The translations under genes and the position numbers were made by a program. From an uncultured bacterium (GTDB lineage Bacteria > Chloroflexota > UBA5177 > JANWHV01), in contig CAWHAE010000012.1 in assembly GCA_963827235.1 (NCBI GenBank), positions 1,152,001 through 1,216,000 of the forward strand: DNA of 64,000 nt, in the 5' to 3' direction. Under the pieces are notes generated by a model. It did no database searches and was not told the origin of the DNA. It was given only the letters and a program-made list of their open reading frames with translations. Of the stretch, positions 4,335-52,267 are shown piece by piece; positions within the stretch are counted from its first letter, which is position 1, and each line of letters starts with the position of its first letter.

Positions 4335-5045
4335 ATGGTCCTGCCGCCGCCAGGCGCGTGGGTATCGGATGGCCGGCCGGTGTCCGTGTTGATTGTCGAC
4401 GATCAGGCGCTGATGGGAGCGGGCCTGCGTTCCATTCTGCAGTCAAGCCCGGACATACACGTAGTCGGCGGAGCTCAGACCGGGCCTGACGCATTAATAC
4501 AGGCGGTTGCACTCAAACCGATGGTCGTTCTCCTGGATACCAGAGCGCCCCAGGCCGGCCGCATGGAAGCCATCCGCGGGTTGAAAGCCCAGCATGCGAT
4601 GGGGGCGATCATCATGATGTCGAGGCGCGACGATGGGTCCGGCATGCTCGACGCGCTACAGGCAGGTGCCAGCGCTTATCTCCTGCACGACTGCAGTCGA
4701 GAGCTACTTCTGCATACGATCGCGGCTGTTGCCAACGGAGGAGCGCTTGTCCAGGCATCATCGTTCCGCGGCAGCCATCTGATGCGCTTCGCCGGTGCCG
4801 GCCGTCAGCCAACCGGCGGTAAGCGCAGCGATCGTCCGGGCCTCGCAACCGAGCCGCTGACCAGCCGCGAAGAAGCCATTCTGCGCCTGGTGGCAGATGG
4901 AACGACCAACCGGGGCATCGCCGACGTCCTGTGTTTCGCCGAGGTTACGATCAAGAAGCACGTGCAAACCATCATCGGTAAGCTGAGCGCGTCCGACAGG
5001 ACACATGCCGCCGTGATCGCCGTGCGGGCGGGACTGATCGACTGA
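4335..5045 (+). CDS. NarL/LuxR-family response regulator (atypical receiver)
   Basis: VLIVDD...VLLD receiver plus LTSREEAILRLVADGTTNRGIA...TIKKHV HTH; start codon uncertain. Confidence 0.9.
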   Translation: MVLPPPGAWVSDGRPVSVLIVDDQALMGAGLRSILQSSPDIHVVGGAQTGPDALIQAVALKPMVVLLDTRAPQAGRMEAIRGLKAQHAMGAIIMMSRRDDGSGMLDALQAGASAYLLHDCSRELLLHTIAAVANGGALVQASSFRGSHLMRFAGAGRQPTGGKRSDRPGLATEPLTSREEAILRLVADGTTNRGIADVLCFAEVTIKKHVQTIIGKLSASDRTHAAVIAVRAGLID

Positions 5046-5937: not shown

Positions 5938-6026
5938 TGCCCTAGGCTGCGAGCACGGCACGTGGCGCGACTCGAGAAGCGGCCGAGCGGTGACCGCCCA
6001 AGCAGATCAAGAGAGGAACTGGTGCC

Positions 6027-7046
6027 ATGGGAGTAGAAATCGCCCTGGCCATCGTGGCAGTACTGTTTGTGACGTTGCTTGCAAGGACGATTCGCATCAT
6101 ACCGCAGGCGCGCGTCGGTGTCGTGCAACGCCTTGGGGCCTTTCACAGTGCCTCCGAAAGCGGGCTGATCGTGGTACTGCCGTTCATCGACAAGATGCTG
6201 CCGCTGCTGGACATGCGCGAGCAGGTGGTCAACTTCCCGCCGCAACCGGTAATTACGTCGGACAACGTGACCATCAACGTCACGACCGTGGTCTACTATC
6301 AGATTCTCAACGCGAAGGACGCGAGCTATCAGGTCGCCAACTTGCTGCAGGCGATGGAGCAGATCGCGCAGACCACGTTGCGGAACGTGATGGGCAGCCT
6401 GTCGCTGGACCGGAGCTTGACCAGTCGCGACGAGGTCAATTCCCAGCTGCGCCTCGTGCTCGACGAAGTGACCGAGAAGTGGGGCGTGCGGATCACGCGC
6501 GTGGAGCTCAAGGATATCAGCCCGCCCAAGGACATCCAGCTGGCGATGGAAAAGCAGATGCAGGCGGAGCGGAACAAGCGGGCCACGATCCTGACCGCGG
6601 AAGGCGAGGCGCAGGCCGCGATCTTGCGCGCGGACGGCGCACAGAAAGCCCTGGTGATTGCCAGCGAAGGCCAGCGACAGGCGGCGATCTTGCGCGCTCA
6701 GGGAGATGCCCAGGCCCTGCTCACCGTGCAGAAGGCGCAGGCGGAAGCCGTGCACATGGTGTTCGAGGCCGTCAACTCCTCGGGTGCCACTCCGGAGGCG
6801 ATGCAGTACCAGTACATGCAGATGCTACCGAAGCTGGCCGACAGTCCGGCGAACAAGGTGTTTATCGTGCCGGCGGACATGGCAGGGCTGGCGGGGCTAG
6901 CCGGACAGGCACTGCATGAGGGACATACGCCAGCCTTCGCCGCCGGTGCACCCGAGGCGCCGGCCGAGACCGAGGACGGGCAAGGGCTGCCGCGGTTGGT
7001 TGCCGGGGCCGATGCACAGGCGCCCGGCGCAAGCACGGCGGTGTGA
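6027..7046 (+). CDS. SPFH/band-7 (stomatin/QmcA-like) membrane protein, copy 1
   Basis: N-terminal TM, then PPQPVITSDN, TTLRNVMG, KQMQAERNKRATILTAEG. Confidence 0.95.
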   Translation: MGVEIALAIVAVLFVTLLARTIRIIPQARVGVVQRLGAFHSASESGLIVVLPFIDKMLPLLDMREQVVNFPPQPVITSDNVTINVTTVVYYQILNAKDASYQVANLLQAMEQIAQTTLRNVMGSLSLDRSLTSRDEVNSQLRLVLDEVTEKWGVRITRVELKDISPPKDIQLAMEKQMQAERNKRATILTAEGEAQAAILRADGAQKALVIASEGQRQAAILRAQGDAQALLTVQKAQAEAVHMVFEAVNSSGATPEAMQYQYMQMLPKLADSPANKVFIVPADMAGLAGLAGQALHEGHTPAFAAGAPEAPAETEDGQGLPRLVAGADAQAPGASTAV

Positions 7047-7074
7047 TTCGGCACCTGTAGTCTCGCGTTGTCTG

Positions 7075-7300
7075 GGCGCACCCGTGGCCCGAATGCACTG
7101 CTCGCGGACCAGTCCCACCGGCATTGTCCAGATGAGCTTCATGTCTAGCCGCGCTGCCCAACCAGCGGCCCGGCCAATAGCCGCAGTCTATTGAGTCTAT
7201 GTCTTGACACGTTTATTGAACCCGCTCATACTGCAGACACCGCCTCTCGGCTCTCGCGCCGGTGCGCTGGCGAAGCGTGGAGAACGCAACGCGGTGACGC
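7075..7300 (+). repeat. copy 1 of a ~200-bp control region (palindrome CAATAG-N7-CTATTG at 7175..7193; promoter TTGACA-N17-CATACT at 7204..7232)
   Basis: Clear nucleotide similarity to ~45195..45370 and ~51020..51200 (cattgtccagatgagcttca...caatagcc..agtctattgagtctat.tcttgacac...catactgcagac). Confidence 0.85.
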
Positions 7301-7361: not shown

Positions 7362-7754
7362 ATGGTGCAACAGCATGCGGGCGCTGTCCAGCCTCTCGCG
7401 GCCGGACAGGGGATCCCTCGCGCGCAATGGCCCAGATTCTTCGAACACATCAGTAGAGAGTATGGAGGAGAGCAGGCGACGCTCGAGCTGGCCGATATGG
7501 AATCGGGCGACTCCGTTCTAGCCACGTACCCACGTTTTCGCAGCATCGCGGCGGACGAGGACTACAACCAGAACCGTATCGCGATAGTTCTGGAGAATGC
7601 GTCCGGTGACCCTACGATGCACACGCTGTCGAAAGCAACTCAGGTACGGTTTGCCGATGCGCTGCGATCCACGCTTGCTACGCTGACCATGGCCACCATG
7701 TCCGGTACGGTCGCCGTGCTGCACTTCGCTCACCCGCCATCGCCCGGGCAGTGA
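7362..7754 (+). CDS. DUF5335-like protein
   Basis: IPRAQWPRFFEHISREY..ATLEL...GD pattern; AAGGAGG RBS. Confidence 0.7.
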   Translation: MVQQHAGAVQPLAAGQGIPRAQWPRFFEHISREYGGEQATLELADMESGDSVLATYPRFRSIAADEDYNQNRIAIVLENASGDPTMHTLSKATQVRFADALRSTLATLTMATMSGTVAVLHFAHPPSPGQ

Positions 7755-8167: not shown

Positions 8168-8470
8168 ATGTCCACACGGATCGCGTTGACTATCCGCCCC
8201 TTGAATGACCATGTCGTGATCAGGCCGGCGAACAAGGAAGAAGTGAGCGCGGCAGGCGTCATCCTGCCGGACACCGCCAAGGAGAAGCCCCAGAAGGGCA
8301 CCATCGTGGCAGCCGGGCCGGGTCGCATTCTCGACAGCGGCACCCGCCAGGCGCTCGAGGTCTCGGTTGGCGAGGAAGTTCTCTACGCAAAGTATGCCGG
8401 CACCGAGGTGAAGCTCGAGGGTGAAGACTATCTGATCCTGTCCGAGAAGGACATTCTGGCCGTAGTCTGA
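8168..8470 (+). CDS. groES: co-chaperonin GroES
   Basis: IRPLNDHVVI, GVILPDTAKEKPQKG, KYAGTEVK, EKDILAVV. Confidence 0.98.
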   Translation: MSTRIALTIRPLNDHVVIRPANKEEVSAAGVILPDTAKEKPQKGTIVAAGPGRILDSGTRQALEVSVGEEVLYAKYAGTEVKLEGEDYLILSEKDILAVV

Positions 8471-8532
8471 GGCGCGTTCCTGCACTGAGGCAGGAAGGCA
8501 AACGGTCGGCACAGGCTGTGCCGACCTAGTAG

Positions 8533-10166
<1,634 letters not shown>

Positions 10167-22738: not shown

Positions 22739-22784
22739 ACAACAGAGCCGGGAGGTAGCGTACGCTACCTCCCGGCTCTGTTGT
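22739..22784. terminator. 46-bp perfect palindrome, probable bidirectional terminator
   Basis: acaacagagccgggaggtagcgt|acgctacctcccggctctgttgt between convergent genes. Confidence 0.75.
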
Positions 22785-26554: not shown

Positions 26555-27550
26555 TTACCCGACGGGGGCGGCTACGACGCGGGTAGCTCCACCACCATTC
26601 CTGGCCTGGCTGGAGGCATCGACTCCGTGCTCAGCCAGGCTCATGCTGCCGTTTGCGACCTGGGCCATCGACCCCGCGAGCCCGGCCAGGCCCGCCATGT
26701 CCGCCGGCACGATAAACACCTTGTTCGCCGGATTCTCGGCCAGCTTCGGTAGCATCTGCATGTACTGGTACTGCATCGCCTCCGGAGTGGCACCCGAGGA
26801 GTTGACGGCCTCGAACACCATGTGCACGGCTTCCGCCTGCGCCTTCTGCACGGTGAGCAGGGCCTGGGCATCTCCCTGAGCGCGCAAGATCGCCGCCTGT
26901 CGCTGGCCTTCGCTGGCAATCACCAGGGCTTTCTGTGCGCCGTCCGCCCGCAAGATCGCCGCCTGCGCCTCGCCTTCCGCGGTCAGGATCGTGGCCCGCT
27001 TGTTCCGCTCCGCCTGCATCTGCTTTTCCATCGCCAGCTGGATGTCCTTGGGCGGGCTGATATCCTTGAGCTCCACGCGCGTGATCCGCACGCCCCACTT
27101 CTCGGTCACTTCGTCGAGCACGAGGCGCAGCTGGGAATTGACCTCGTCGCGACTGGTCAAACTCCGGTCCAGCGACAGGCTGCCCATCACGTTCCGCAAC
27201 GTCGTTTGGGCGATCTGCTCCATCGCCTGCAGCAAGTTGGCGACCTGGTAGCTCGCGTCCTTCGCATCGTGGATCTGATAGTAGACCACCGTGGTCACAT
27301 TGATCGTCACATTGTCCGCGGTGATCACCGGCTGCGGTGGGAAGTTGACCACCTGCTCGCGCATGTCCAGCAACGGCAGCATCTTGTCGATGAAGGGCAG
27401 TACCACGATCAGTCCGCTCTCGGAGGCACTGTGAAAGGCCCCAAGGCGTTGCACGACACCGATCCGCGCTTGCGGGATGATACGGAACGTTCGGGCCAAC
27501 AAGCCCACAAACACGACAACGACGATGGCCAGGGCGATTTCTACTCCCAT
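26555..27550 (-). CDS. SPFH/band-7 membrane protein, copy 2
   Basis: Near-identical to 6027..7046 up to DMAGLAGLAG, then a different tail; true start is ATG 27550. Confidence 0.95.
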   Translation of the reverse strand: MGVEIALAIVVVVFVGLLARTFRIIPQARIGVVQRLGAFHSASESGLIVVLPFIDKMLPLLDMREQVVNFPPQPVITADNVTINVTTVVYYQIHDAKDASYQVANLLQAMEQIAQTTLRNVMGSLSLDRSLTSRDEVNSQLRLVLDEVTEKWGVRITRVELKDISPPKDIQLAMEKQMQAERNKRATILTAEGEAQAAILRADGAQKALVIASEGQRQAAILRAQGDAQALLTVQKAQAEAVHMVFEAVNSSGATPEAMQYQYMQMLPKLAENPANKVFIVPADMAGLAGLAGSMAQVANGSMSLAEHGVDASSQARNGGGATRVVAAPVG

Positions 27551-27647
27551 GGCACCAGTCCTTTCCTGACATGCGCAGGCAGCCGGCGCTCGGCCGCGTA
27601 GCGCGTCGCGCACAGCACGACACTCGGCAACTCGGCCGCCTGCTGCC

Positions 27648-28440: not shown

Positions 28441-28470
28441 CGCCACCCGGCAGCCGGCTGCCGGGTGGCG
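28441..28470. terminator. 30-bp perfect palindrome after the surface-protein gene
   Basis: cgccacccggcagcc|ggctgccgggtggcg. Confidence 0.65.
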
Positions 28471-36730: not shown

Positions 36731-36956
36731 CGCCGTTAGGATCCGGCTGCTCGAGAGATAGGCTGGCCTATCTCTCGAGCAGCCGGGTCACGATCGCACA
36801 TGCCACGAGACGAAAGGCGGTCCGGCCTCGGCCGCGTACTCCGCCGCCTTGTCTATCAGGTGGGCAAGGATCTCAGGGTGAGCGGTGTCCGCGGCTCGTG
36901 GCTGCCTGTGCATTCCAGGATGGCTGTAGTCACGGACAAGATGGTGAGCCGAGTGT

Positions 36957-39594: not shown

Positions 39595-39975
39595 ATGGAT
39601 GGTTTCTCCTCCGGGCTGTCGGCCGCCCCCTCCGCGCGGGAGGTGTTCGATATCCTGTGGGAGACAATGGCCGATATCCTTGGCACCGCGGCGACGGCAA
39701 CGCTCTTGCGTCGCGCCGCCAAGCGCGGCATCGCCCGCCATGCTGCGTTGACCGGCGTGAGCATCAGGCAGCAGGATTTGACCTACTCCTATGTGCTGCC
39801 CAGTTCCTGGGAACAGGAGTCAAACCAGCAGGCACTGGACGCGCTGCGCACGCTGGCACTGGAGTTGCGCCCCTTACTGATTGAAATGACCGGACCGGTT
39901 GTGATCAGGCGTCTCGGTCAGGTGGCGGCGCTGTCCACTTTATGGTCCGTCTTGCAGGAGGAGGTTCGGACGTGA
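39595..39975 (+). CDS. small protein translationally coupled to the KaiC-like ATPase
   Basis: ILGTAATATLLRRA...LRPLLIEMTGPVVIRRL; its stop overlaps the GTG of the next gene; extended -10 TGCTATAAT at ~39529. Confidence 0.75.
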   Translation: MDGFSSGLSAAPSAREVFDILWETMADILGTAATATLLRRAAKRGIARHAALTGVSIRQQDLTYSYVLPSSWEQESNQQALDALRTLALELRPLLIEMTGPVVIRRLGQVAALSTLWSVLQEEVRT

Positions 39976-41462
39976 GTGCTGGCACGGTGGCGCCATCTAT
40001 CGAGCTCCTGGGTACCGGGAGCGCCGTCCTGGACAGCATTCTGGGCGGTGGTCTGCCTGCGCGCTCAGTAACCGTGATTGCCGGCCAGCCTGGATCCGGC
40101 AAGACGATTTTCGCGCTGCAACTCCAGTTCCATCTGGCGCGCCAGGGCAAGCGTTGCCTGTATTTCACGACCCTGTCGGAGCCCTCGCTCAAGCTGATCC
40201 ACTACATGCAGCTATTCTCCTTCTTCGATCAGCAACTGCTCGATGAGCAAATCCGCTTTGCGGATCTGGGCTCAGCTATTCGCGCCCGGGGAGCGAGCCA
40301 GGCGCTCGCCGAGATCAGCGCGCGGGTGGAACGCGAGGAGCCGGACCTGGTGATCATCGACAGCTTCAAGGCCATCTACGACCTGCTAGGCCCGCCCGGC
40401 GCCGGCCGCACTTTCGTCTACGATCTGGCCGTGTCGATGGCCGGCTGGGGGGCGACCACGCTGCTGGTCGGCGAGTATGCAGCACAGGATATCGTCACGG
40501 CGCCCGAGTTCTCTATTGCCGACGGCATCATTCGCCTGGGCAACCAACCGCAGGAGCTGACTGCCGTGCGGGTGCTGGAGGTGCTCAAGCTGCGCGGCGC
40601 CAATTGCATGACGGGCCAGCACTTCTTCGAGATCACCGAAGATGGGCTGGTTGTCTACCCACGTGTACGCGCCCCAGAGCTCAGCGTGACGGTGCCAGCC
40701 GGCAGCGCCGAGCGTTCCTCGACCGGTATCACCGGACTGGACGAGCTGCTGCATGGCGGTTTGCCGCACCGCAGCTGCACTCTGGTGCAAGGCGGCACCG
40801 GGACAGGGAAGACTCTATTGGCCCTCAGTTTCCTCATCGACGGCGCTGCACGAGGCAAGCGCGGTGTGATATTCACCCTGGAAGAGACGCCCGAGCAACT
40901 CCACGACATCGCCAGGGGCTTCGGCTGGGACCTGCCGGCGTTGGAGGCCCAGGGGTTGGTGCTCGTCCACTACACGTCACCGGTCGAGCTCTCCACCGAC
41001 CGCTTCCTCAATGTAGCCCGAGGGGTCATTCAGGAGTGGCATGCCCAGAGGGCTGTGCTTGACAGTGTCACGAGTGCAGGGATGGGCGTGTCTTCCGAGC
41101 GGCGGTTCAAGGAGCTGATCTATTCCCTGACGAAGCACTTCCGCGCCTTGGGCGTCACGTCGGTCCTCACCATGGAGGTCCCCGAACTGTTCGGTACGTC
41201 GCAGCTGACCGGCCACGGCGTCTCCTCTATCGCGGATAACGTGATCCTCCTGCGGTTCGTCGAGATAGAAGCGCGCTTGGAGCGGGCGATTTCGGTACTC
41301 AAGGCGCGAGGTGTCCACCACGAGATGGAGCTGCGCCGATTCCGCATCACCGATAGCGGCTTCCAGGTTAATGGGCCGTTCACGCACTATCGTGGCGTGC
41401 TGACGGGCGTGCCGACGCTCGCTCCGGCGGGGCCACAGCAGAGCGAATCAGGCGAGCCATGA
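39972..41462 (+). CDS. KaiC-like double RecA-type ATPase (module A)
   Basis: GQPGSGKT and GGTGTGKT Walker A motifs, IIDSF/VLDSV, TLEET, GVSSIADNVILLRFVE, YRGVLTGVPT. Confidence 0.92.
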   Translation: MSAGTVAPSIELLGTGSAVLDSILGGGLPARSVTVIAGQPGSGKTIFALQLQFHLARQGKRCLYFTTLSEPSLKLIHYMQLFSFFDQQLLDEQIRFADLGSAIRARGASQALAEISARVEREEPDLVIIDSFKAIYDLLGPPGAGRTFVYDLAVSMAGWGATTLLVGEYAAQDIVTAPEFSIADGIIRLGNQPQELTAVRVLEVLKLRGANCMTGQHFFEITEDGLVVYPRVRAPELSVTVPAGSAERSSTGITGLDELLHGGLPHRSCTLVQGGTGTGKTLLALSFLIDGAARGKRGVIFTLEETPEQLHDIARGFGWDLPALEAQGLVLVHYTSPVELSTDRFLNVARGVIQEWHAQRAVLDSVTSAGMGVSSERRFKELIYSLTKHFRALGVTSVLTMEVPELFGTSQLTGHGVSSIADNVILLRFVEIEARLERAISVLKARGVHHEMELRRFRITDSGFQVNGPFTHYRGVLTGVPTLAPAGPQQSESGEP

Positions 41463-42710
41463 GCACGGTCTCTGCTGTTCTTGGCACGGCAAGGCCGGTG
41501 ACGCGCGCCCTCTACGACGTAGCGCAGCTCCTGGAAGCGACCCAGAATGCCGAGACGCGCGTGCGAAGAGTGCTGACGCTGTTAGGGGAGATGGTTCCCT
41601 ACGACCAATGCGTGCTTCTCTGTGCCACAGAGGTGGCCATGCCCCGGATGACGTCGCTACCTCCTCTCGAAGAAGGCCCGGCGTCAGAGGTTAGCGCCGC
41701 GCTCGATAGCTTGTTGCAGTTGCTGAGGGAATCCGCGAGCGACCAGGCCGGTGCCGGCCTGCCGTCCTCCGCTGCGGGCGCTTTGAGCGGTGCATCTCAC
41801 CTGGCAGTACCGCTCGTCGCCTTGAACGAGGTGATCGGGATCCTGGCCGTGTGGCAGCGAGTCCCGGACGCCTACGGGGAAGTGGACGTGGGCCTGCTGT
41901 CGGTGGTTGCCGCGCAGCTTGCCTCCTACATGGCCGGACTCACGGCGCGCGATATGCTGGACCGCATGGTCGCAGCGGTGGCGCACGACCTCGGCAATCC
42001 GCTGATGAGTATCTCCGGTGTGAGCCAATTCCTGCAGCGGCACGTAGGACAACTGGGCGAGCCGGAGCGAGAACGATTTGCGCATGGCTTGAAGACCATC
42101 GAGACTACCACGTGGAGCATGACTACGCAACTCAACGAGCTGCTCGACTACGCGCGAGCGCAGACGGGTCGCTTGCTCGATCTGGACACCGAGCCTACCG
42201 ACGTCGTGGCGCTGCTTCGGCAGACAGTGGATGAATACCAGCGCTCGACCGAACGGCATACCCTGGTGCTGCAGACCGCCGAGGAGACGATTGTGACCAT
42301 GGTCGATCCGCGCCATCTGGGGCGTGCGGTCGCCAGTCTCCTCGTCAACGCCATCAAGTACAGTCCGGAGGGGGGACAGATCGTGGTCTCGGTCTCGCGG
42401 GCCGTCGGGATCCGACGGCCGGTGGTTGAGCATAACGATAGCCGACAATGGGCTCGGCATTCCTCGTGCCGACTTGCCGCACCTGTTTGAACAGTATTAC
42501 CGAGCCAGCAACGTAGCAACCACGATTCCCGGCTCCGGCATCGGACTTGCGAACGCTCGTCACACGATCGAGCGGCACAGCGGCACCATCACCATCGATA
42601 GTGCCGAGGGAGCGGGCACGACTGTCACCGTTCAACTGCCGCTGCTTCCGGCCGAGGTGCAGCCGACCTACGTCGCAGGCCAGGCAGCGATAGCGCCGGA
42701 ACAGGGCTGA
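41459..42710 (+). CDS. GAF-domain sensor histidine kinase (one +1 frameshift at ~42408)
   Basis: GAF (HLAVPL..VIGIL), H-box VAHDLGNPL, NAIKYSP; next frame gives DNGLGIP...GSGIGL. Confidence 0.9.
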
Positions 42711-42824: not shown

Positions 42825-43274
42825 TCAATCGTCGGAAGCAGCCATCTCCGCGTTTGCGTCGGGCCACCGGGGCCCAAGGAAGCGGTGCAGCTGAAGCTCG
42901 AGATCGGAGAGATGAAACGGCTTGCGCATGACCACGTCCGCGCGGGCCGCCCGGGCCTGCAGCAGGTTTGCTTCGGTTATCAGGATGATTGGCGGCATCA
43001 CCGACCCATCAAGTGCGGCGTCCTGACGCAACATGGCTATCAGGGAGGCGCCGTTGAGATAGGGCAGCATCAAGTCGAGGATGAGCAAGGCAGGATGGTG
43101 CGCGCGCGCAAGCTCCAGCGCCTGCCGCCCGTGCAGGGCGATCAGCGGCGTGTAGCCCGCTTCGCGCACGATGAAGGCGACGGTCTCCGCCAGCGGCTCC
43201 TCGTCCTCCGCTATCAGCACCAGAGCCGGCTCCCGTGAATCCTGGGATGCTTGCGGGCTGGTCCTGCCGCTCAT
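42825..43274 (-). CDS. single-domain CheY-like receiver, copy 2
   Basis: VLIAEDEE, LILDLMLP, IILIT, KPF. Confidence 0.9.
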   Translation of the reverse strand: MSGRTSPQASQDSREPALVLIAEDEEPLAETVAFIVREAGYTPLIALHGRQALELARAHHPALLILDLMLPYLNGASLIAMLRQDAALDGSVMPPIILITEANLLQARAARADVVMRKPFHLSDLELQLHRFLGPRWPDANAEMAASDD

Positions 43275-44932
43275 TCCTGCTCCTTGTTCGCTTCGCGGGC
43301 CATCGGCTGCCGGTCTCGTGCTACGGCGCGAGCGGGTGTGGCCGCTGACCGCGCCCGCGACCGCGCTGGGCCGGAATTCACCCTGCTCCCGCTCGATGCC
43401 TGCCAGTAATCCCGGCGCACTCTCCCCGGTCGAGCGCACCGCTATGCCCGCAGGCGCGGCTATCGTGAACTCGCGCAAACTGAGGTCGTGCGCCGAGAAT
43501 CGCATCTTGAGCACCGACAACACCCGGTAGAAGTGCCCGCGATAGATCACGCCCTGCAGCCACAGCACGTTCTCCGCGATGCCGCGAGCTCAGGTCCGTC
43601 TCCAGCTCCAGGTCCGACCCCGCAAGCGGGCCCGTCTCTTTCGTGAACAGCGCGCTGATCCGCCGCCGCTGCAGGGCGGCAATCAATGCCGAGAGGTAGT
43701 TCTGCACCCGCCGCGGACTGCTCCCTTCGCTCACCGCCCGCTCGACCACGGCGATGCTGTCGATGACCAGCCGCCGCGCCCCCGTGCCGTCGAGCGCACC
43801 CAGCAACTGGTCGGCCAGCGCGTCGGCATCCAGCTCTACCGCCGGATAGTGCAGCAGCGTCAGACCGCCTCCGGGCGCCAGCGCGGCCCGCAGCTCCTGG
43901 CCCAGGTTGAAGGCATCCGCCTTGAGCAGCAGCTGGCGCCGGTCCTCGTGAAACCCCAGGAACACTACCGGCTCGCCCGCCCGTACCCCGGCCAGGGCAA
44001 AGTGCAGGCCCAGCAGCGTCTTGCCTGAGCCCCCGCTGCCGATCACGATGGTGGTCGTGGCACGCGTCAGCCCACCCCCAAGCAGCGCATCCAGGGCCGG
44101 AAGGTCAAAGGTCGCCCGCTCGAGCGCTGCCGCCTCGACAGCCGCCGCCGGCTCGCCGTCGTCTCGGTCCGCCGCCGTCACGGCCTGGCGGCGCCTGTCG
44201 CACGACCCGGGCCTCCAGTCGCGGCGAGGTCACTACCCCCGCGCTACTCAGCTCCAGGCTGTGCAGACCCGACAGCGGCGTGGCACCCCGCGCCTTCACC
44301 ACCTCCAACCGCCGCCGCTGCCGCTCGCCGTCCACGCCAAAGTGCAGCCCGATGATCGTGTCCGCCGTCGTCGCCTCCGGAAAGAACTGCGGATCCCGAA
44401 TCTCCGCCTCGGCGGTGATGATGGTGGTCGTCTCCTGCGCGCTCAGCGTGGTGCCGACGTCGAACAGGAACTGCCGCCCTGCCAGCGGCTCCGCGTCGAC
44501 GGCCCGCATGCCGCTGAACCCGTCCAGCACCACCAGGCTCGCCCGCTCCGCCCGCACCAGATGGATCAGCGACTGGCTCGCTCCCGCCAGCCCGGCACTC
44601 AGAAACGGCTGCAGACTGAGCAGCTTCACCCGCTCGCCGATCAGCGTGGGATCGTAGAACGCGTAGGCACTCAGGTGCGCCAGCAGCTTGCTCGGCGCTT
44701 CCGACAGCACGCTGAAGATCAGCACCTGCCGCCCCGCCCGCGCCGCCGCCCAGGCCATCTGCAGGGCCAGCGTCGTCTTCCCCGAGCCCGGCGGCCCCAC
44801 CACGATCGCCAGTGTGCCGCGTGCCAGACCGCCGCCCAGAATCAGGTCGAGGTTCGGCACGCCGCTTGGGTCGACCACCCTCGGCGCCGCGTCCACGACC
44901 GTGCTCGACGTTACCTGCTTGAGCTCATGCAT
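43271..44932 (-). CDS. KaiC-like double ATPase, duplicate of 47730..49388 (three +1 insertions at ~44191, ~43580, ~43322)
   Basis: Near-identical nucleotide sequence to the intact copy; GPPGSGKT and GSGGSGKT. Confidence 0.85.
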
Positions 44933-44946
44933 GTAGCCCTCCCCAG

Positions 44947-45125
44947 TCACTTCACAGCCGTAGTGTGATTTGCCTCCTCCAACGTGGATGGCATGCTGGG
45001 TTTCCGCTCTGCCTCACCCCCGGGGAAGCACGAGAGCGATCGCGGTTCCGTGCCAGCCGTCTGCGCATGCCGCGGCCTTGCGCGGTGCACAGACTGCTTT
45101 CCACCCAGATAAGGAGCTTGGCCAT
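44947..45125 (-). pseudogene. internally deleted remnant of the MerR-PAS-histidine kinase gene
   Basis: MAKLL is joined directly to IWVESS, followed by a WHGTAIALVLP-like segment and ...AVK*, matching the first 5 and last ~65 codons of 49403..50992. Confidence 0.85.
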
Positions 45126-45194
45126 CCTGACTTCCCCCAGCTGTACGTGGTGACGCGCATCGGTGGCAACGGGCTCCGCGACTTGACTGAGCAC

Positions 45195-45370
45195 CATTAT
45201 CCAGATGTACCTCACACCTAACTGTACAATCATAGCAGCAACCAGGTACAATAGCCAGAGTCTATTGAGGCTATGTCTTGACACAGTGATTGGACCCGCC
45301 TATACTCCAGACACCGCCCCGGCTCTCGCGCCGAAGACGCACCGAGAATGCAACGCGGTACAGCTCTGGG
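45195..45370. repeat. copy 2 of the bidirectional control region (palindrome 45249..45267; TTGACA-N17-TATACT at 45278..45306)
   Basis: Aligned by eye with the 7075..7300 and 51020..51200 copies. Confidence 0.85.
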
Positions 45371-45642: not shown

Positions 45643-45990
45643 ATGCAGCACGGTAACGGTATCCATATTGAGAACAGCGAGCCGCAGAAGAGCGCCCTCG
45701 TCGACGGGCTGCTGCAAGACGGAATCGACCGCGCGGCATCCTGGCGAGCACGCCTACGGGAGTCGACGATGGCACGGCAGGCGGCCGAGCGTCGCTATGC
45801 CCGTGAGGGGTCGGCAGCAAGTGCCAACAGTCCCGAGTCCTCGGCCCTGGCCCGAGAACGAGCGGTTGTTCTCCGGATGGAGTTGACGCGCATCGTGGCC
45901 GAGGATCGGGCTTGGATGCAGCAGCATGGTGTCGAAATGCTCGAGCCTCTCACGCGCAAGCGCCGCTCAGAGAGAAGCACACAGCCTTAG
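45643..45990 (+). CDS. small helical hypothetical protein
   Basis: AAGGAGG RBS; 115 aa starting MQHGNGIHIENSEPQK. Confidence 0.6.
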   Translation: MQHGNGIHIENSEPQKSALVDGLLQDGIDRAASWRARLRESTMARQAAERRYAREGSAASANSPESSALARERAVVLRMELTRIVAEDRAWMQQHGVEMLEPLTRKRRSERSTQP

Positions 45991-46126: not shown

Positions 46127-47263
46127 CTATCGCGTACGGTCCCTCGCCTTTTCGCGTTTCTCCTGGTCACGCACGGTCTGCAATACGGGCTGCGGAGCCC
46201 GTCCGCGCAGCTCGCGCCAGGCTACCGTGCCCACCGCCTGCAACAAGCCGGCCAGCGGAGCAGCAAACAGAGCTCCCCAGATGCCGAACAGCTCGCTCCC
46301 CGCCACCAGGCCGATCAGCGCAGTTGCCGGATGGATGCCGACGGCCTTGCCCATCACGCGCGGGCCCACGATATCACCCTCGATGACGTGCACGACGGCG
46401 AAATAGGCAAGGACCACGAGCGAGAGAACCCAGCCCTGGAAGAACGCGACCAGGACGCATACGGCGCCGGAAACGAGCACGCCGATGATCGGAATGAACT
46501 CCATGAAGAAGGCGAGGACGCCCAGCAAGATGGCATAGGGGACGTGGAGGATCGACATCCCGCCGCCAACCAGTATTCCGATGAGCAGCGCCATGGTCAA
46601 CGTGCCGCGTATGTAGCCGCCCACCACCTGGTTCACAATACCGATCAGCTGGGTTGTGCGCTCGCGATATGCCCCGGGCGTCTCGCGGCGCAACCGCTGG
46701 GATATGCGTGGGCCGTTAGCCGTGAGATAGACACTGAGAATCAGAATGAGAATCATGTCGATGACCGTGTTGACGATCCCGGAGACGATTCCCAACGATT
46801 GCGTTGCAGCGGCCGTGCCCGTGCTCTGGAGATAGGTAATCGCCTGCTGCTGCGTGTGGTCGAGCTTCGCTTGAGTAACCCCGAAGGGTTTGAGCGCCGT
46901 AAGGAGCTGCGGCTCGAAGCGCTTGAGCTGAAGCTGGTATTTCGGCAGGTTGTCGACCAAGCTTGTGACCTGGTTTGCCGCCGTGTCCACGATCAGCGCG
47001 AGCAGCCCGAGAATCACGGCGAAGCCAAGCACGTAGGCCGCGGCAATCGCCAGCGGCCGCGGCATCCAGCGCGCCAACACCTTGACCAGCGGCGTGAGCG
47101 CGAACGCCACGATGCCGCCGAGCAGCAGCACCAGGATGGTCTTGGTGACGTGGGCGAGCAGCCATACGCCGACCACGAGCACGCCGGCCCAGGCCAGGAT
47201 GATCAGCGGCAGGTACAGCGCGCGCTGCCATGCCGCGGGCACCTTGTCAGTATCGGCGCTCAT
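46127..47263 (-). CDS. AI-2E family transporter
   Basis: AFALTPLV, GGYIRG, MEFIPIIG, IEGDIVGPRVMGKAVGIHP, FGIWGALFAAP. Confidence 0.93.
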   Translation of the reverse strand: MSADTDKVPAAWQRALYLPLIILAWAGVLVVGVWLLAHVTKTILVLLLGGIVAFALTPLVKVLARWMPRPLAIAAAYVLGFAVILGLLALIVDTAANQVTSLVDNLPKYQLQLKRFEPQLLTALKPFGVTQAKLDHTQQQAITYLQSTGTAAATQSLGIVSGIVNTVIDMILILILSVYLTANGPRISQRLRRETPGAYRERTTQLIGIVNQVVGGYIRGTLTMALLIGILVGGGMSILHVPYAILLGVLAFFMEFIPIIGVLVSGAVCVLVAFFQGWVLSLVVLAYFAVVHVIEGDIVGPRVMGKAVGIHPATALIGLVAGSELFGIWGALFAAPLAGLLQAVGTVAWRELRGRAPQPVLQTVRDQEKREKARDRTR

Positions 47264-47733
47264 CGTGATTCAGGGTGCCGATCCGACTGATCGTCCGCGG
47301 ACACCGGGCCCGTCGCGGCAGTGGGTTCGGGTGCCAGGAAGCGCCGCAGCACGACCTCCAGATCCTCAAGATGGAACGGCTTGCGCAGCACCGTGTCGGC
47401 ACCGGCCGCCCGAGCGCGGGGAAGGCTGGCGCCGGTCATCACGACGATCGGCGGCGCGCTCGTGCCGTCGCCCTTGGCATCCGCTCGCAACGCGGCAATG
47501 ACGGCCTCGCCATCCAGGTACGGCAGCATCAGGTCGAGGATGAGCAGCGCCGGACGCCGTGCCCGTGCGAGCTCCAGCGCCTCTCGCCCGTGCAGGGCGA
47601 TCAGCGGCGTGTAGCCCGCTTCGCGCACGATGAAGGCGACGGTCTCCGCCAGCGGCTCCTCGTCGTCGGCGATCAGCACCACGGCCGCCTCCCGTGCATC
47701 CTGGGATGCTTGCGTGCTGGTCGTGCCGCTCAT
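47260..47733 (-). CDS. single-domain CheY-like receiver, copy 1
   Basis: VLIADDEE, LILDLMLP, VVMT, KPF; ATGA overlaps on both sides. Confidence 0.92.
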   Translation of the reverse strand: MSGTTSTQASQDAREAAVVLIADDEEPLAETVAFIVREAGYTPLIALHGREALELARARRPALLILDLMLPYLDGEAVIAALRADAKGDGTSAPPIVVMTGASLPRARAAGADTVLRKPFHLEDLEVVLRRFLAPEPTAATGPVSADDQSDRHPESR

Positions 47734-49388
47734 GCCTGCTCCCTGTTCGCTTCGCGGGCCATCGCTTGCCGGTCTCGTGCACGGCGCGAGCGGGTGTGGC
47801 CGCTGACCGCGCCCGCGACCGCGCTGGGCCGGAATTCACCCTGCTCCCGCTCGATGCTCGCCAGCAATCCCGGCGCACTCTCCAGCGGACCGCGCACGGC
47901 AATGCCGGCGGGCGCGGCTATCGTGAACTCGCGCAGCGTGAGGTCGTGTGGCGAGTACCGCATCTTGAGCACCGACAACACCCGGTACAGCCGCCCGCGC
48001 AAGATCACGGCCTGCAGCCACACCACGTTCTCCGCTACACCCGAGCTCAGGTCCGTCTCCAGCTCCAGGTCGGACCCGGCAAGCGGGCCGGTCTCCTTCG
48101 TGAACAGCGCGCTGATCCGCCGCCGCTGCAGGGCGGCAATCAATGCCGAGAGGTAGTTCTGCACCCGCCGCGGACTGCTCCCTTCGCTCACCGCCCGCTC
48201 GACCACGGCGATGCTGTCGATGACCAGCCGCCGCGCCCCCGTGCCGTCGAGCGCACCCAGCAACTGGTCGGCCAGCGCGTCGGCATCCAGCTCTACCGCC
48301 GGATAGTGCAGCAACGTCAGACCGCCTCCGGGCGCCAGCGCGGCCCGCAGCTCCTGGCCCAGGTTGAAGGCATCCGCCTTGAGCAGCAGCTGGCGCCGGT
48401 CCTCGTGAAACCCCAGGAACACCACCGGCTCGCCCGCCCGTACCCCGGCCAGGGCAAAGTGCAGGCCCAGCAGCGTCTTGCCTGAGCCCCCGCTCCCGAT
48501 CACGATCGTGGTCGTGGCACGCGTCAGCCCACCCCCAAGCAGCGCATCCAGGGCCGGAAGGTCAAAGGTCGCCCGCTCGAGCGCTGCCGCCTCGACAGCC
48601 GCCGCCGGCTCGCCGTCGTCTCGGTCCGCCGCCGTCACGGCCTGGCGGGCCTGGCGCACGACCCGGGCCTCCAGTCGCGGCGAGGTCACTACCCCCGCGG
48701 CACTCAGCTCCAGGCTGTGCAGACCCGACAGCGGCGTGGCACCCCGCGCCTTCACCACCTCCAACCGCCGCCGCTGCCGCTCGCCGTCCACGCCAAAGTG
48801 CAGCCCGATGATCGTGTCCGCCGTCGTCGCCTCCGGAAAGAACCGCGGATCCCGAATCTCCGCCTCGGCGGTGATGATGGTGGTCGTCTCCTGCGCGCTC
48901 AGCGTGGTGCCCACGTCGAACAGGAACTGCCGCCCTGCCAGCGGCTCCGCGTCGACGGCCCGCATGCCGCTGAACCCGTCCAGCACCACCAAGCTGGCCC
49001 GCTCCGCCCGCACCAGATGGATCAGCGACTGGCTCGCTCCCGCCAGCCCGGCACTCAGAAACGGCTGCAGGCTGAGCAGCTTCACCCGCTCGCCGATCAG
49101 CGTGGGATCGTAGAACGCGTAGGCACTCAGGTGCGCCAGCAGCTTGCTCGGCGCTTCCGACAGCACGCTGAAGATCAGCACCTGCCGCCCCGCCCGCGCC
49201 GCCGCCCAGGCCATCTGCAGGGCCAGCGTCGTCTTCCCCGAGCCCGGCGGCCCCACCACGATCGCCAGTGTGCCGCGTGCCAGACCGCCGCCCAGAATCA
49301 GGTCGAGGTTCGGCACGCCGCTTGGGTCGACCACCCTCGGCGCCGCGTCCACGACCGTGCTCGACGTTACCTGCTTGAGCTCATGCAT
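47730..49388 (-). CDS. KaiC-like double RecA-type ATPase (module B)
   Basis: SGVPNLDLILGGGL, GPPGSGKT, RRLEVVKARG; LDALLGGGL, GSGGSGKT, LVIDSI, LSVLKMR; GGGGAGG RBS before ATG 49388. Confidence 0.92.
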   Translation of the reverse strand: MHELKQVTSSTVVDAAPRVVDPSGVPNLDLILGGGLARGTLAIVVGPPGSGKTTLALQMAWAAARAGRQVLIFSVLSEAPSKLLAHLSAYAFYDPTLIGERVKLLSLQPFLSAGLAGASQSLIHLVRAERASLVVLDGFSGMRAVDAEPLAGRQFLFDVGTTLSAQETTTIITAEAEIRDPRFFPEATTADTIIGLHFGVDGERQRRRLEVVKARGATPLSGLHSLELSAAGVVTSPRLEARVVRQARQAVTAADRDDGEPAAAVEAAALERATFDLPALDALLGGGLTRATTTIVIGSGGSGKTLLGLHFALAGVRAGEPVVFLGFHEDRRQLLLKADAFNLGQELRAALAPGGGLTLLHYPAVELDADALADQLLGALDGTGARRLVIDSIAVVERAVSEGSSPRRVQNYLSALIAALQRRRISALFTKETGPLAGSDLELETDLSSGVAENVVWLQAVILRGRLYRVLSVLKMRYSPHDLTLREFTIAAPAGIAVRGPLESAPGLLASIEREQGEFRPSAVAGAVSGHTRSRRARDRQAMAREANREQA

Positions 49389-49402
49389 GTAGTCCTCCCC
49401 AG

Positions 49403-50992
49403 TCACTTCACAGCCATGGCGCTCGTCACGGCCATGCCGCTCGTCACGGCCGTCTTCTGCCCTGCCCGTTTCGACGTACCGAGCATGCCCGGCTTCTGCG
49501 CTTCTCCGCCCAGGGGAAGCACGATCGCTACCACGGTCCCGTGCCAGCTGCTCGCCGAATCTTCCGCGTCGACAGCGGGCACACTCCGTTCCACCCAGAT
49601 GTGGCCGCCGTGCGCGGACACGATGGCCCGGCACACGTACAGGCCAAGCCCTGCACCCCGTGTCCCGGTCTCGGCATCGGGCGCCCGCCAGTAGCGATCG
49701 AACACGTGCGGCAGGGCGGCCGGCGCGATGCCTATGCCCGTATCCGCCACGCGCACCCACGCCCAGCCGCCGGCCTCATCCGGCGCCGCGTCCTTCGTCA
49801 CCGCCCCGTCGGCCGTCTGCACGGGCGGCGCTGCCGCCATCTCAAGTCGCACCTCGATCGTACCCCCGTCCGGTGAGTACTTGATCGCGTTGCTCAACAG
49901 ATTGTCTAGCACCTGTCGCAGCCGGATGCGATCGCCGGCCACCATCAGCGGTCCAGGCGGCCCCGCGACCGTGACCCGGTGCCGCGACGTCTGCTGCAGC
50001 GCATCTTCGGCCGCCTGCAGCGCCATTGCCGTCAGGTCCACGCCTTCCGGATCCAGGTCGTGAATGAGCAGTCCCTTGGTGGCCCGGGACGCGTCCAGCA
50101 CGGTCTGCATCACCCGAATCAGGTGCTCCGTGCTGCGCTCAGCGACAGCCAGGTGGTGCATGACCTGCTGTGTCGCCGCCTCGTCCCCCGCGCGCAGCCT
50201 GGCGCCGACATGGCGGGCCAGTTGCAGTCGCCCCAGAATGGTGGTCACCGGGTTGCGCAGATCATGCGCCGCCACCGCGAGCCAGTCCTCGGGCAGCAGA
50301 GAGGCATCCGGCGGCATCACGCGGCCCACGCCCACGGCGCCCGTAGACTGGCCCTCCTCGTCCCGCAGCGGTGTGACCGTCCACGACGTCTGCAATTGCT
50401 CGCCTGTCGCGCCGGGCAGCAGCAGCGTTACGTCCCGGTGCCGCGTGCCGGTCTGCGCGGCCCAGCGCAGCGGCAGCGTCTCCAGCGCGAGCGGCGGCAG
50501 CTCGCCGTCGAGGGAGCGCGCGGGTACGTCCGCTTCAAGATGCTCCGGCTCCAGGTGCAGCAGTGCCCGCAGGGCCGGATTCATCGAGGTAACACGTCCT
50601 TCGCGGTCTCCCACGACCACGAGGTCGGCCATTCCCGCGACCACCGCCTGCCAGTATGCCGCATCGCTCATCACCGCCGGTCCGTCGGCGCCCGGCAGGC
50701 CCGCGTAGTCCTCGGGTCCGGGCACCAGGGCGCCGCTGTCGAGCTCCTTCGCCACACGGCGCAGACTGCCCCGCCGCCCCGGCTTCAGCAGGGAGCGCGC
50801 GATGAGCCGCACGCGCGCCATGTCGTCGATCGAATACAAGCGCGTTGCCCTGGGCGATCGCAGGGGCCGCAGGATTCCGGCGTCCTCCCAGGAGCGCAGC
50901 CGCGGCGGCGGCACTCCGGTGAACGCCGCGACGTCGGCTATGAGGAAGGTGGCTTTCTGCTCGAGCACCGTCTCCTGAAGGAGCTTGGCCAT
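49403..50992 (-). CDS. MerR-type HTH - PAS - HisKA - HATPase fusion (soluble histidine kinase with a DNA-binding domain)
   Basis: IADVAAFTGVPPPRLRSWEDAGILRPLR...RLYSIDD; PAS (LVVVGDREGRVTSMNPA...PLRDEEG); AAHDLRNP; NAIKYSP, DTGIGI, GAGLGL; no TM segment. Confidence 0.92.
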   Translation of the reverse strand: MAKLLQETVLEQKATFLIADVAAFTGVPPPRLRSWEDAGILRPLRSPRATRLYSIDDMARVRLIARSLLKPGRRGSLRRVAKELDSGALVPGPEDYAGLPGADGPAVMSDAAYWQAVVAGMADLVVVGDREGRVTSMNPALRALLHLEPEHLEADVPARSLDGELPPLALETLPLRWAAQTGTRHRDVTLLLPGATGEQLQTSWTVTPLRDEEGQSTGAVGVGRVMPPDASLLPEDWLAVAAHDLRNPVTTILGRLQLARHVGARLRAGDEAATQQVMHHLAVAERSTEHLIRVMQTVLDASRATKGLLIHDLDPEGVDLTAMALQAAEDALQQTSRHRVTVAGPPGPLMVAGDRIRLRQVLDNLLSNAIKYSPDGGTIEVRLEMAAAPPVQTADGAVTKDAAPDEAGGWAWVRVADTGIGIAPAALPHVFDRYWRAPDAETGTRGAGLGLYVCRAIVSAHGGHIWVERSVPAVDAEDSASSWHGTVVAIVLPLGGEAQKPGMLGTSKRAGQKTAVTSGMAVTSAMAVK

Positions 50993-51019
50993 CTTGCACT
51001 CTCCTGTTTTGTGTGTGCA

Positions 51020-51200
51020 GACACGTGACCCGCGTGCACTGCCCTCGAACGAGTCTCCTCGCCATTGTCCAGATGAGCTTCAGACCTATACCATCCAGCA
51101 TACCAGCAGCCCGCACCAATAGCCAGAGTCTATTGAGTCTATATCTTGACACGTTGTGTGCACCCGCCCATACTGCAGACGCACTCCTCTCCACGCTCGC
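51020..51200. promoter_or_regulatory. copy 3 (native position) of the bidirectional control region
   Basis: CAATAG-N7-CTATTG at 51117..51135; rightward TTGACA-N17-CATACT at 51146..51174; leftward TGGCTA-N17-(TGG)TATGCT. Confidence 0.8.
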
Positions 51201-51307
51201 CGGTCGTGCCGACGTGAAGCAGGGTCAGGCACCGACATGCAGCGCCAGCCCGGACCGCGTCCCGGCGCGACGCGTACACGTGCGGCACGAACGCTGGAGG
51301 ATCCAGG

Positions 51308-52267
51308 ATGAATACGCTGTTCTCGAGACATGATGCATATCGTATAGATCACCTGATCACGCTCGCGGGCGTGGTCGCACCGTTTGTCGCCCTTCTCTAC
51401 GCCATCCATCAGCTCTGGGATCGTGCGGTAACCGGCCAGGACCTCGTCCTCTGCGCCGTACTGTACGCGCTGACGGGGATGGGCATCACGATTGGATTTC
51501 ACCGCCTGGCGACGCATCGCAGCTTCGTTGCCGCGGTGCCGCTACGCGCCTTGCTGCTCGCATTGGGCTCGATGGCGGTAGAAGGCCCGGTGATCTACTG
51601 GGTATCGACGCATCTGGAGCACCACGCCAAGAGCGATCGCGAAGGCGATCCGCACAGTCCGCGGGACGGCTTCTGGCACGCTCACCTGGGCTGGATGTTC
51701 GGCGCTTTCTCCGCGTCACCCTCGACCTATGGCCGCCATCTGCTGCACGATCGGCTCGTACAGTTCATGTCGCGCACGTTCGTCGGCTGGGTCGTTCTGA
51801 GCTTCGCCGTGCCTGGGCTGCTGGACGGCTGGCTCTCGCGCGGCAGTGCCGGCGGCTTCGGCACGGGATTCTGGCATGGCATACTCTGGGGAGCATTGGT
51901 TCGCATGTGTCTGACCCATCACGTGACCTGGAGCGTGAACTCCATTTGCCACACCTTCGGCCGTCGTCCCTTCGCCGCGACGCGGGATCGCAGTCGCAAC
52001 AACTGGGTCGTGGGACTGCTGGCCTTTGGCGAGGGCTGGCACAACAACCACCATGCATTTCCTTCTGCCGCCTACCACGGCTTCGCCTGGTGGCAATTCG
52101 ACATGTCGGCATATCTGATTCGACTGTTCAAGGTCGCCGGATTGGCCACGAAGGTGCAGATGCCGACTGCTGAAGCCGTGACACGAGAGCGCGCTCGAAC
52201 CAGACCCGCCGACGCGGCGGTTGTCGCCGGGGCCGGCTGGGAGTCTACCGTACGCCGGGCGAGGTAG
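51308..52267 (+). CDS. acyl-CoA/acyl-lipid delta-9-type fatty acid desaturase
   Basis: His boxes HRLATHRSF, HLEHH, GEGWHNNHH; also GDPHSP. Confidence 0.95.
   Translation: MNTLFSRHDAYRIDHLITLAGVVAPFVALLYAIHQLWDRAVTGQDLVLCAVLYALTGMGITIGFHRLATHRSFVAAVPLRALLLALGSMAVEGPVIYWVSTHLEHHAKSDREGDPHSPRDGFWHAHLGWMFGAFSASPSTYGRHLLHDRLVQFMSRTFVGWVVLSFAVPGLLDGWLSRGSAGGFGTGFWHGILWGALVRMCLTHHVTWSVNSICHTFGRRPFAATRDRSRNNWVVGLLAFGEGWHNNHHAFPSAAYHGFAWWQFDMSAYLIRLFKVAGLATKVQMPTAEAVTRERARTRPADAAVVAGAGWESTVRRAR

Follow-up and report, generated by a model that had tools for sequence, protein, structure and literature searches.

The window analysed here is a 64,000-nucleotide (nt) stretch from an uncultured Chloroflexota bacterium (GenBank assembly GCA_963827235.1, contig CAWHAE010000012.1, positions 1,152,001 to 1,216,000). 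It encodes a compact operon for a soluble histidine kinase, a two-domain KaiC-like ATPase, and a single-domain receiver, and this trio is a conserved signalling unit in the bacterium's genus. The new element is a MerR-type DNA-binding domain, a helix-turn-helix (HTH), at the N-terminus of the kinase, and this feature is probably functional. A palindrome, CAATAG-N7-CTATTG, lies between the operon and a divergent fatty-acid desaturase gene. The favoured explanation, which is held to be probable, is that a cytoplasmic unit of KaiC-like ATPase, PAS kinase, and receiver has gained the HTH on its kinase, and that the palindrome is a separate operator-like element.

The kinase consists of a winged HTH (residues 18-86), a PAS domain (110-225), a DHp/HisKA segment (234-305), and an HATPase domain (316-494), as delimited by Pfam and an AlphaFold2 model. 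This is the order that an earlier note on this DNA had read, and all four Pfam domains score (MerR_1, 32.6; PAS_4, 36.5; HisKA, 34.8; HATPase_c, 94). The MerR_1 match (PF13411) covers residues 18-66 and compares with a cut-off of 21.6 bits, and the protein has no space for a membrane segment. The model, built on 30 homologs, has a mean predicted local distance difference test (pLDDT) score of 75.5, with values of 76-91 for the HTH helices and wing over residues 20-100. Helices at residues 18-25, 29-37, and 55-67 together with a beta wing make up the predicted HTH. The long coiled-coil dimerisation helix at the C-terminal side and the effector pocket of canonical MerR are not present in the model, where only a short helix (74-86) precedes the PAS domain. 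The catalytic machinery is well preserved among the 30 homologs, in which the H-box His243 is nearly invariant and N368, D417, G419, G421, F431, G446, G448, and G450 (N, G1, F, and G2 boxes) are invariant.

The HTH is the best-conserved region of the kinase. Residues L32, R33, S34, W35, and E36 and the run from P71 to S76 are invariant in the 30 sequences, and the consensus reads LLIADVAALTGVPPPQLRSWExAGLLHPRRSPNAxRLY...RLIKRSLxNPGRRGSLRRLA. Conservation in the family is highest in the recognition helix, in the wing, and in the Arg-rich turn between alpha3 and alpha4. PGRRGS was considered as a special phospho-motif and ruled out, as it occupies this turn of the MerR fold, where Gly-x-Ser-Leu is conserved in ordinary MerR proteins. 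The closest family models to the HTH are HspR, CarH, FtsR, and TnrA, all of which score under their cut-offs (30.8 bits against 105 for the HspR model NF047375), and the closest solved structures are CarH 5c8d (E 4.5e-05), GlnR 7tea (E 3.8e-04), and the CarA DNA-binding domain 2jml. Family models and structures thus both place the domain nearest to the HspR/CarH/GlnR-TnrA-like branch, in keeping with the regulators to which the earlier note had compared it. MerR domains of this branch bind repeats outside the -35/-10 spacer, and the oligomeric state of the short MerR branch is set by another part of the protein or by a partner.

HTH-headed sensor kinases are a wider family than the kinase type of the window. 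A scan of 1.84 billion representative proteins with the HTH gave 315 proteins at E <=0.001 and 27 at E <=1e-10. Ten long matches, examined out of 150 listed, all carry an N-terminal MerR_1 domain; six of the ten are MerR-(GAF/PAS)n kinases (1000-1300 residues) with HATPase_c, and five of these six also have HisKA. Closer relatives of the window kinase share its full plan. A collection of 5.8 billion proteins yielded 31 matches to kinase residues 1-235, and the architecture that the earlier note had proposed to search for is borne out by 30 of the 31, which combine MerR and HATPase_c; the exception is a fragment from another contig of the same genome (C17).

The second protein of the operon aligns to solved KaiC structures with E values from 2e-42 to 1e-29. 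Its Walker A and Walker B motifs are intact and are invariant in both halves across 40 relatives. At the Glu-Glu catalytic pairs of KaiC, the protein has S77-E78 and H328-E329, so that the second Glu of each pair is retained; S77-E78 and H/R328-E329 are invariant in that form in the 40 sequences. Ser448-Ser449 align with the Ser-Thr pair of KaiC 7dy1 (the S431/T432 position). Scores against the curated KaiC equivalogs fall far below the cut-offs (163.4 against 408 for NF006799; 103.4 against 546.25 for TIGR02655). KaiB (PF07689) has no match in the 95.9%-complete genome, the Synechococcus control being positive, and KaiA was not searched for. A defence-system reading was set aside, PADLOC having returned for the KaiC-like protein a P-loop-local match alone (mad8, residues 36-74). 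The predicted complex of the KaiC-like protein with kinase residues 1-235 had a score of 0.00 (mark 0.32; controls not folded), which counts neither for nor against binding. The receiver has a DD pocket (D23, D24), the phospho-acceptor Asp67, Thr100, and Lys118.

Only three other KaiC-family genes are present in the genome: a broken duplicate in the window, the C17 copy, and a homolog at 39942-41462 that is closer to true KaiC. This homolog (506 residues, 287.6 bits) overlaps the start of a gene for a GAF-HisKA kinase (region 39942-42490). The HATPase domain of that kinase breaks off at about position 33 of its 111-position profile; the gene ends near the boundary of a duplicated segment, and the truncation may stem from the duplication.

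The operon is as tightly packed as the earlier note had described it. The kinase and KaiC-like genes are joined as TGA-ctggggaggactac-ATG, a 14-nt gap with a GGAGG-type ribosome site that contains GGGGAGGA, and the KaiC-like/receiver and receiver/transporter junctions read GCATGA and CGATGA, both ATGA overlaps. The double KaiC-like domain, the receiver ending without an output domain, the AI-2E family transporter, and the divergent desaturase are likewise upheld by Pfam (Table 1).

Conservation of the trio was examined in the genome of the window (7.98 Mb) and its relatives, among which G001-G004 belong to the same genus. In a search of 41 related genomes (the unpublished G018 is among those without a match), full-length kinase matches that include the HTH are confined to this genus: G001 (65% identity), G003 (54%), and G002 (50%, on a 2.6-kb contig). 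G004 (90% complete) has no match with the HTH query. A second, split copy of the kinase lies on C17. The earlier note had suggested that the neighbourhood be checked for conservation, naming a lack of it in homologs as grounds for refutation, and the outcome is divided. In G001, in G003, and on C17, the kinase gene is followed directly by genes for a two-domain KaiC-like protein and a receiver, which again lacks an output domain; the palindrome, the desaturase upstream, and the AI-2E transporter are absent beside the kinase at these three loci. The transporter, translationally coupled at the window locus, is thus not a conserved member of the signalling unit. After the trio come a second KaiC-like gene in G001, a gene for an HTH_17-PAS-GGDEF-EAL protein in G003, and one for a 213-residue protein of no family on C17. 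The G003 protein (contig L025, 401-4069; 1222 residues) has HTH_17, several PAS domains, GGDEF, and EAL.

The wider databases give a consistent picture of the kinase/KaiC-like pairing. Nine pairs of kinase and KaiC-like matches in the protein collection have longest contigs of equal length, which suggests that the two genes of each pair lie together on one contig. Metagenomic contig L107 encodes a sister kinase that lacks the HTH and has 42% identity over the part from residue 114 on. The next gene on L107 is KaiC-like and overlaps that of the kinase; the HTH is therefore a later addition to an older pair of PAS kinase and KaiC-like protein. Otherwise, the scan of metagenome contigs was dominated by generic kinases and yielded only L107 and the partial L108, and that of genome contigs yielded only L027 and L028, which correspond to G002 and G003.

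Several known systems resemble parts of this unit. In the cyanobacterial clock, the KaiC hexamer is coupled to the histidine kinase SasA, which relays its state to transcription through RpaA. The window likewise pairs a KaiC-family ATPase with a histidine kinase, but differs from the clock in the missing KaiB (KaiA aside), in the low equivalog scores, and in the replacement of one Glu per catalytic pair. Moreover, RpaA has a DNA-binding domain whereas the window receiver has none, and SasA has a KaiB-like domain where the window kinase has the HTH. A second comparison is with CarH/LitR, GlnR/TnrA, and HspR, whose MerR-type domains are fused to, or controlled by, a sensor part and act at operators outside the -35/-10 spacer. 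Their short MerR winged HTH is the nearest by sequence, and by analogy the window HTH would be expected to need, for DNA binding, an oligomeric state set by the C-terminal part. In contrast to these regulators, the C-terminal part in the window is a full PAS histidine kinase and not a B12-binding or glutamine-synthetase-responsive tail, and the window has no site like the HspR-associated inverted repeat (HAIR).

The closest parallel is found in Pseudomonas. A preprint by Terrettaz et al. (bioRxiv 10.1101/2022.01.26.477890) describes KaiC homologs that occur without KaiB and affect stress resistance. There, a KaiC homolog interacts physically with both its kinase and a single-domain receiver, for which the PAS domain of the kinase suffices, and one phylogenetic group (group III) has SS at the KaiC phosphosite. 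The window shares with the Pseudomonas module a two-domain KaiC homolog without KaiB, an operon with a PAS kinase and a single-domain receiver, a Ser-Ser pair, and a stress-related setting. It differs in the N-terminal MerR-type HTH of the kinase, in the gene order of kinase, KaiC-like ATPase, and receiver with translational coupling, and in its Chloroflexota host. KaiC-like ATPases are also presented, in Galperin et al. (PMC5847659, its reference 41), as archaeal signal-transduction hubs with receiver and other signalling domains linked or fused to them; the window has instead a bacterial operon of unfused proteins in which the partner kinase bears a predicted DNA-binding domain. Because the Pseudomonas module has been published and the archaeal hubs cited, the core of the window system is of a described kind. 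The earlier note had called the whole an undescribed signalling system, which does not hold for the combination of KaiC-like ATPase, PAS kinase, and single-domain receiver, given what the preprint describes, and does hold for the MerR-type HTH on the kinase: no paper on a MerR-histidine kinase fusion was found in the literature searched, subscription journals and supplements lying outside the search.

How such a unit might operate can be outlined from its parts. The kinase would dimerise through its PAS/DHp part, placing two HTHs side by side in an arrangement suited to binding an inverted repeat. By analogy with Pseudomonas, a hexamer of the KaiC-like protein may dock on the kinase, and its nucleotide or Ser-phosphorylation state would then set the balance of kinase and phosphatase activity and perhaps also DNA occupancy. 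The receiver would accept the phosphoryl group, serving as a sink or as a partner of the kinase and the KaiC-like protein. The palindrome would be a separate element, part of a cassette multiplied in this genome alone, whose four copies presumably drive the desaturase, two DUF5335 genes, and a small open reading frame (ORF).

The palindrome (CAATAGCCAGAGTCTATTG) is found where the earlier note had reported it, in the 315-bp region between the kinase and desaturase genes. With up to one mismatch, it occurs three times in the window against 0.04 expected, a count reached in none of 100 shuffles. Exact copies number three in the whole genome, all in the window (7175, 45249, and 51117), and the reversed-pattern control gives none. 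Each copy lies within a repeated promoter module, roughly 120 nt long (alignments between the copies span 119-192 nt), that had escaped the earlier note. The module is ordered as a box, CCATT(G/A)TCCAGATG; the palindrome; a direct repeat, GAGTCTAT-T-GAG(T/G)CTAT, overlapping the right arm; and a promoter, TTGACA-17-(C/T)ATACT. Copies A, B, and C carry the exact palindromes. Copy D, on C17 upstream of a DUF5335 paralog (72% amino acid identity), keeps the -35 and -10 hexamers and has 3 of 12 arm positions changed. After the DUF5335 gene of copy C come a CIRCE (controlling inverted repeat of chaperone expression) at 7897, groES, and a broken groEL.

The only consensus-like promoter of the kinase-desaturase region faces the desaturase and not the kinase, a further point missed by the earlier note. 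In copies A, B, and C alike, exactly 48 nt separate the palindrome centre from the final base of the -10, which puts the palindrome about 55 bp upstream of the presumed transcription start. A canonical MerR operator sits inside an over-long (19-20 bp) -35/-10 spacer; here, 17 bp separate the two hexamers, and the palindrome is located farther upstream than the -35. Two other identities were tried for the module and its surroundings. An RNA element was rejected, no Rfam family reaching its gathering score in the window. An HspR regulon was also rejected: the eight HAIR-like sites of the genome, with one or two mismatches, all lie outside the window, and groES/groEL and hsp20 carry CIRCE-like repeats instead.

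Beyond this genome the palindrome has no clear counterpart. G001-G004 contain no exact copy, and their single-mismatch copies (0, 4, 2, and 5) compare with 1, 1, 0, and 2 for controls; the module, as a 168-nt query, was not found in these four genomes (best match E 0.115). Desaturase orthologs (70-74% identity) occur in G002, G003, and G004 on contigs other than that of the kinase and without the palindrome, and an orthologous TTGACT-17-CATACT promoter precedes those of G003 and G004. About 300 nt upstream of these two desaturase genes (contigs L206 and L207), an inverted repeat, AGTATGGG-N3-CCCATACT, lies within this promoter, with one mismatch in G004; it takes up the whole spacer and reaches into the -10, a placement like that of MerR operators. 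A comparison of the regions upstream of four kinase genes (window, G001, G003, and C17) found no common operator. Post hoc inspection picked out ATAATA-N7-TATTAT over a TGCTATAAT -10-like box upstream of the G001 kinase, in a register different from that of the window site, and, at the G003 kinase, a single CCAATAG half-site that precedes a TTGACT-17-CATACT promoter by 24 nt. Judged by sequence comparison, the palindrome is a real, constrained, operator-like element specific to this genome, with no comparative link to the kinase.

Which protein acts at the palindrome can be answered in different ways. The chances are not far short of even that it is the operator of another regulator, within a stress-responsive cassette spread by segmental duplication and promoter capture, and that its adjacency to the kinase is incidental. 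This is suggested by the presence of four module copies in this genome and the failure to find any in four congeners, by the unrelated genes that they precede (desaturase, DUF5335 twice, and small ORF), and by the abundance of recent duplications in the region (operon, 93%; Band 7, 92.6%; groEL segment, 99% at the amino acid level). The core -35 and -10 are orthologous to the palindrome-less desaturase promoter of G003 and G004, and other regulators are encoded nearby, such as a receiver-GerE protein (4230-5045). Nevertheless, the palindrome has no candidate regulator linked to it, and the kinase HTH is the sole DNA-binding domain encoded directly beside two of the module copies.

The earlier note had instead proposed that the kinase HTH binds CAATAG-N7-CTATTG and that the kinase is itself the transcription factor for desaturase and membrane-stress promoters, modulated by the KaiC-like ATPase and the receiver, which would turn the usual two-component scheme around. 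This model is now doubtful. In its favour, the palindrome lies next to the kinase gene and a second copy adjoins the remnant of a duplicated kinase gene; because copies A and B arose by one tandem duplication, however, this adjacency counts once. A 6-N7-6 inverted repeat suits a dimeric winged HTH, and the HTH is closest to the HspR, CarH, and GlnR/TnrA types. The position is plausible for an activator or a repressor; the sites from which TnrA activates have their centres about 50 bp upstream. No arm position varies among three copies, compared with 60% invariant columns elsewhere in the module, and the genes served by the module lie within a heat and membrane-stress island. Against this, the kinases of G001, G003, and G002 have nearly the same recognition helix and wing in genomes that lack the exact palindrome, G001 having none even with one mismatch, and the module was not found in any of the four congeners searched. 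The desaturase orthologs of G003 and G004 keep their -35 and -10 without it, and the kinase upstream regions of G001, G003, and C17 have no such shared repeat. Copy D, which shares its contig with the paralogous kinase, has altered arms. A distance of 41-44 kb separates copies C and D from a kinase gene, and the palindrome stands upstream of a promoter that reads toward the desaturase, in a module that also drives DUF5335 genes far from kinase genes. The HTH-kinase is accordingly retained as one candidate, an unlikely one, for the palindrome-binding protein. A fuller version of the model is less probable again: the kinase would be a bifunctional DNA-bound transcription factor and kinase, its presence at promoters governed by the KaiC-like ATPase and by a receiver serving as phosphate sink. 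The DNA-binding output would then be the kinase, in place of a response regulator; by acting at the palindrome it would co-ordinate the desaturase and the DUF5335 stress genes, perhaps as a switch that is slow or integrates temperature.

A different alternative concerns the HTH itself, which might be no transcriptional output at all; it could act as a DNA tether or localiser, take DNA as an input, or offer a surface for protein contacts, with genes controlled via an unlinked response regulator. The same HTH heads very different long MerR-GAF-PAS kinases, as a general N-terminal accessory domain might, and the HTH-less sister kinase is still paired with a KaiC-like gene. The protein that follows the trio in G003 has a different N-terminal HTH (HTH_17) ahead of PAS, GGDEF, and EAL, and the orthologs' upstream regions have no conserved operator that could be found. 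On the other hand, conservation peaks at the recognition helix, wing, and Arg-rich turn, as expected of a sequence-specific DNA binder, and the operon's sole receiver has no output domain. The alternative is, on balance, rather improbable. That the palindrome has no function, its three perfect copies merely reflecting recent duplication, is very improbable: all module copies are paralogous and copy D has lost symmetry while its promoter hexamers and gene persist, but flank identity among copies A, B, and C has fallen to 76-85%, with all 12 arm positions invariant against 57 of the 95 other module columns (naive P ~0.002) and with the distance to the -10 held constant.

The favoured explanation, a KaiC-like/PAS-kinase/receiver unit with an added HTH and a separate palindrome, also has observations that weigh against it. 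DNA binding by the HTH is deduced from conservation and the predicted fold. Because only one Glu per catalytic pair is kept, the ATPase or autokinase chemistry of the KaiC-like protein may differ from that of KaiC, and across 40 sequences the SS pair is retained only in part (S448 in 22, S449 in 31). The family is small, with the HTH-alone query matching 4 of 21 genomes of the class, all in one genus (G018 again counting among those without a match). A promoter scan found no consensus-like promoter for the kinase operon in the intergenic region. Finally, the C17 copies of the trio and of DUF5335 are diverged (72-87% amino acid identity); because the genome bin has 9% contamination and is oversized for the genus (8.0 Mb against 4.4-5.4 Mb), this 'paralog' may come from a co-binned relative, or it may represent a large paralogous region.

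Histidine kinases are textbook sensors that do not bind DNA and give their output via a response regulator. The window kinase has the HisKA and HATPase_c domains of an orthodox two-component kinase, both above their cut-offs, but no linked response regulator with an output domain, here or at the three other loci. A kinase family with an intact, conserved MerR-type HTH and an output-less linked receiver offers a test case for direct transcriptional control by a kinase, and its proteins are small and soluble and thus easy to express. The system would also help to show the role of non-clock KaiC homologs, which is still largely unknown according to Terrettaz et al. (bioRxiv 10.1101/2022.01.26.477890). 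The palindrome module, for its part, illustrates clearly how a cassette of promoter and constrained operator can multiply inside a single genome.

Table 1. Coordinates of the kinase operon, the promoter modules, and the operon duplicate in the window.
Feature	Position	Strand	Evidence or remarks
Soluble histidine kinase, 529 residues	49403-50992	minus	Pfam and AlphaFold2 model
MerR HTH core coding region (residues 18-66)	50795-50941	minus	family's most conserved stretch
Two-domain KaiC-like ATPase, 552 residues	47730-49388	minus	two PF06745 stretches, 170.4 bits total
Stand-alone receiver, 157 residues	47260-47733	minus	Response_reg 56.5 bits, no further domain
AI-2E family transporter	46127-47263	minus	Pfam, 223.7 bits
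Fatty-acid desaturase (FA_desaturase)	51308-52267	plus, divergent from kinase operon	Pfam, 75.3 bits; served by module copy B
Palindrome CAATAG-N7-CTATTG	51117-51135		pattern search; in the kinase-desaturase region
Sigma-70-like promoter TTGACA-17-CATACT	51146-51174	plus, toward desaturase	10/12 matches; 1 site vs 0.2 expected
Module copy A	45194-45312	plus	palindrome 45249-45267, promoter 45278-45306; faces small ORF 45643-45990
Module copy B	51062-51180	plus	box CCATTGTCCAGATG 51063-51075, palindrome, -35, -10; faces desaturase
Module copy C	7068-7257	plus	palindrome 7175-7193, promoter 7204-7232; upstream of DUF5335 (7362-7754)
Degraded tandem duplicate	42877-44959	minus	KaiC-like copy in four frame pieces (residues 1-261, 248-449, 450-537, 537-551) plus receiver copy
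Receiver duplicate	42831-43274	minus	70% amino acid identity
Second kinase gene remnant	45013-45125	minus	ATG 45125-45123 and MAKLL; C-terminal fragment 45013-45057

The operon is accompanied by a degraded tandem duplicate (42877-45312) that the earlier note had missed. Positions 42877-44959 match 47336-49415 with 93% DNA identity. About 1.4 kb has been deleted from the second kinase gene, leaving its first five codons and a C-terminal scrap. The frame breaks in 42877-45130 may be those of a real pseudogene or assembly indels. It is from this one tandem duplication that module copies A and B both stem. The small, conserved ORF that copy A faces (115 residues, no Pfam family) has a paralog on C17 (113434-113793; 57% identity over 120 residues) and another just outside the window, at 1151512-1151778 of the window's contig.

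The window as a whole is a heat and membrane-stress gene island, and several of its genes are recent duplicates. Besides two KaiC systems, it contains genes for HlyIII, the receiver-GerE regulator, two Band 7 proteins, DUF5335, groES, groEL, two LPG-synthase-TM proteins, PspA, a glycosyltransferase, FtsH, Hsp20 (with a CIRCE-like repeat), YfbU, a PRC-barrel protein, and a PLD-type enzyme. In the chaperone region (8168-10165), groES (8168-8470) precedes a groEL that is broken into two or more frames (8545-9939 and 9035-9997), the middle segment of which has 99% amino acid identity to a copy on another contig (C19). The CIRCE-like repeats are at 7897 (2 mismatches) and, upstream of hsp20, at 23512 (3 mismatches). 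The Band 7/SPFH gene is present as an inverted duplicate (5965-6904 and 26673-27611, 92.6% identity), and the paralogous kinase gene of C17 likewise has a Band 7 gene ahead of it (90550-91071). A self-BLAST of the window revealed further inverted repeats at 22739-22784 (46 nt, perfect), 28441-28470 (30 nt, perfect), and 36740-36789 (50 nt, 92% identical).

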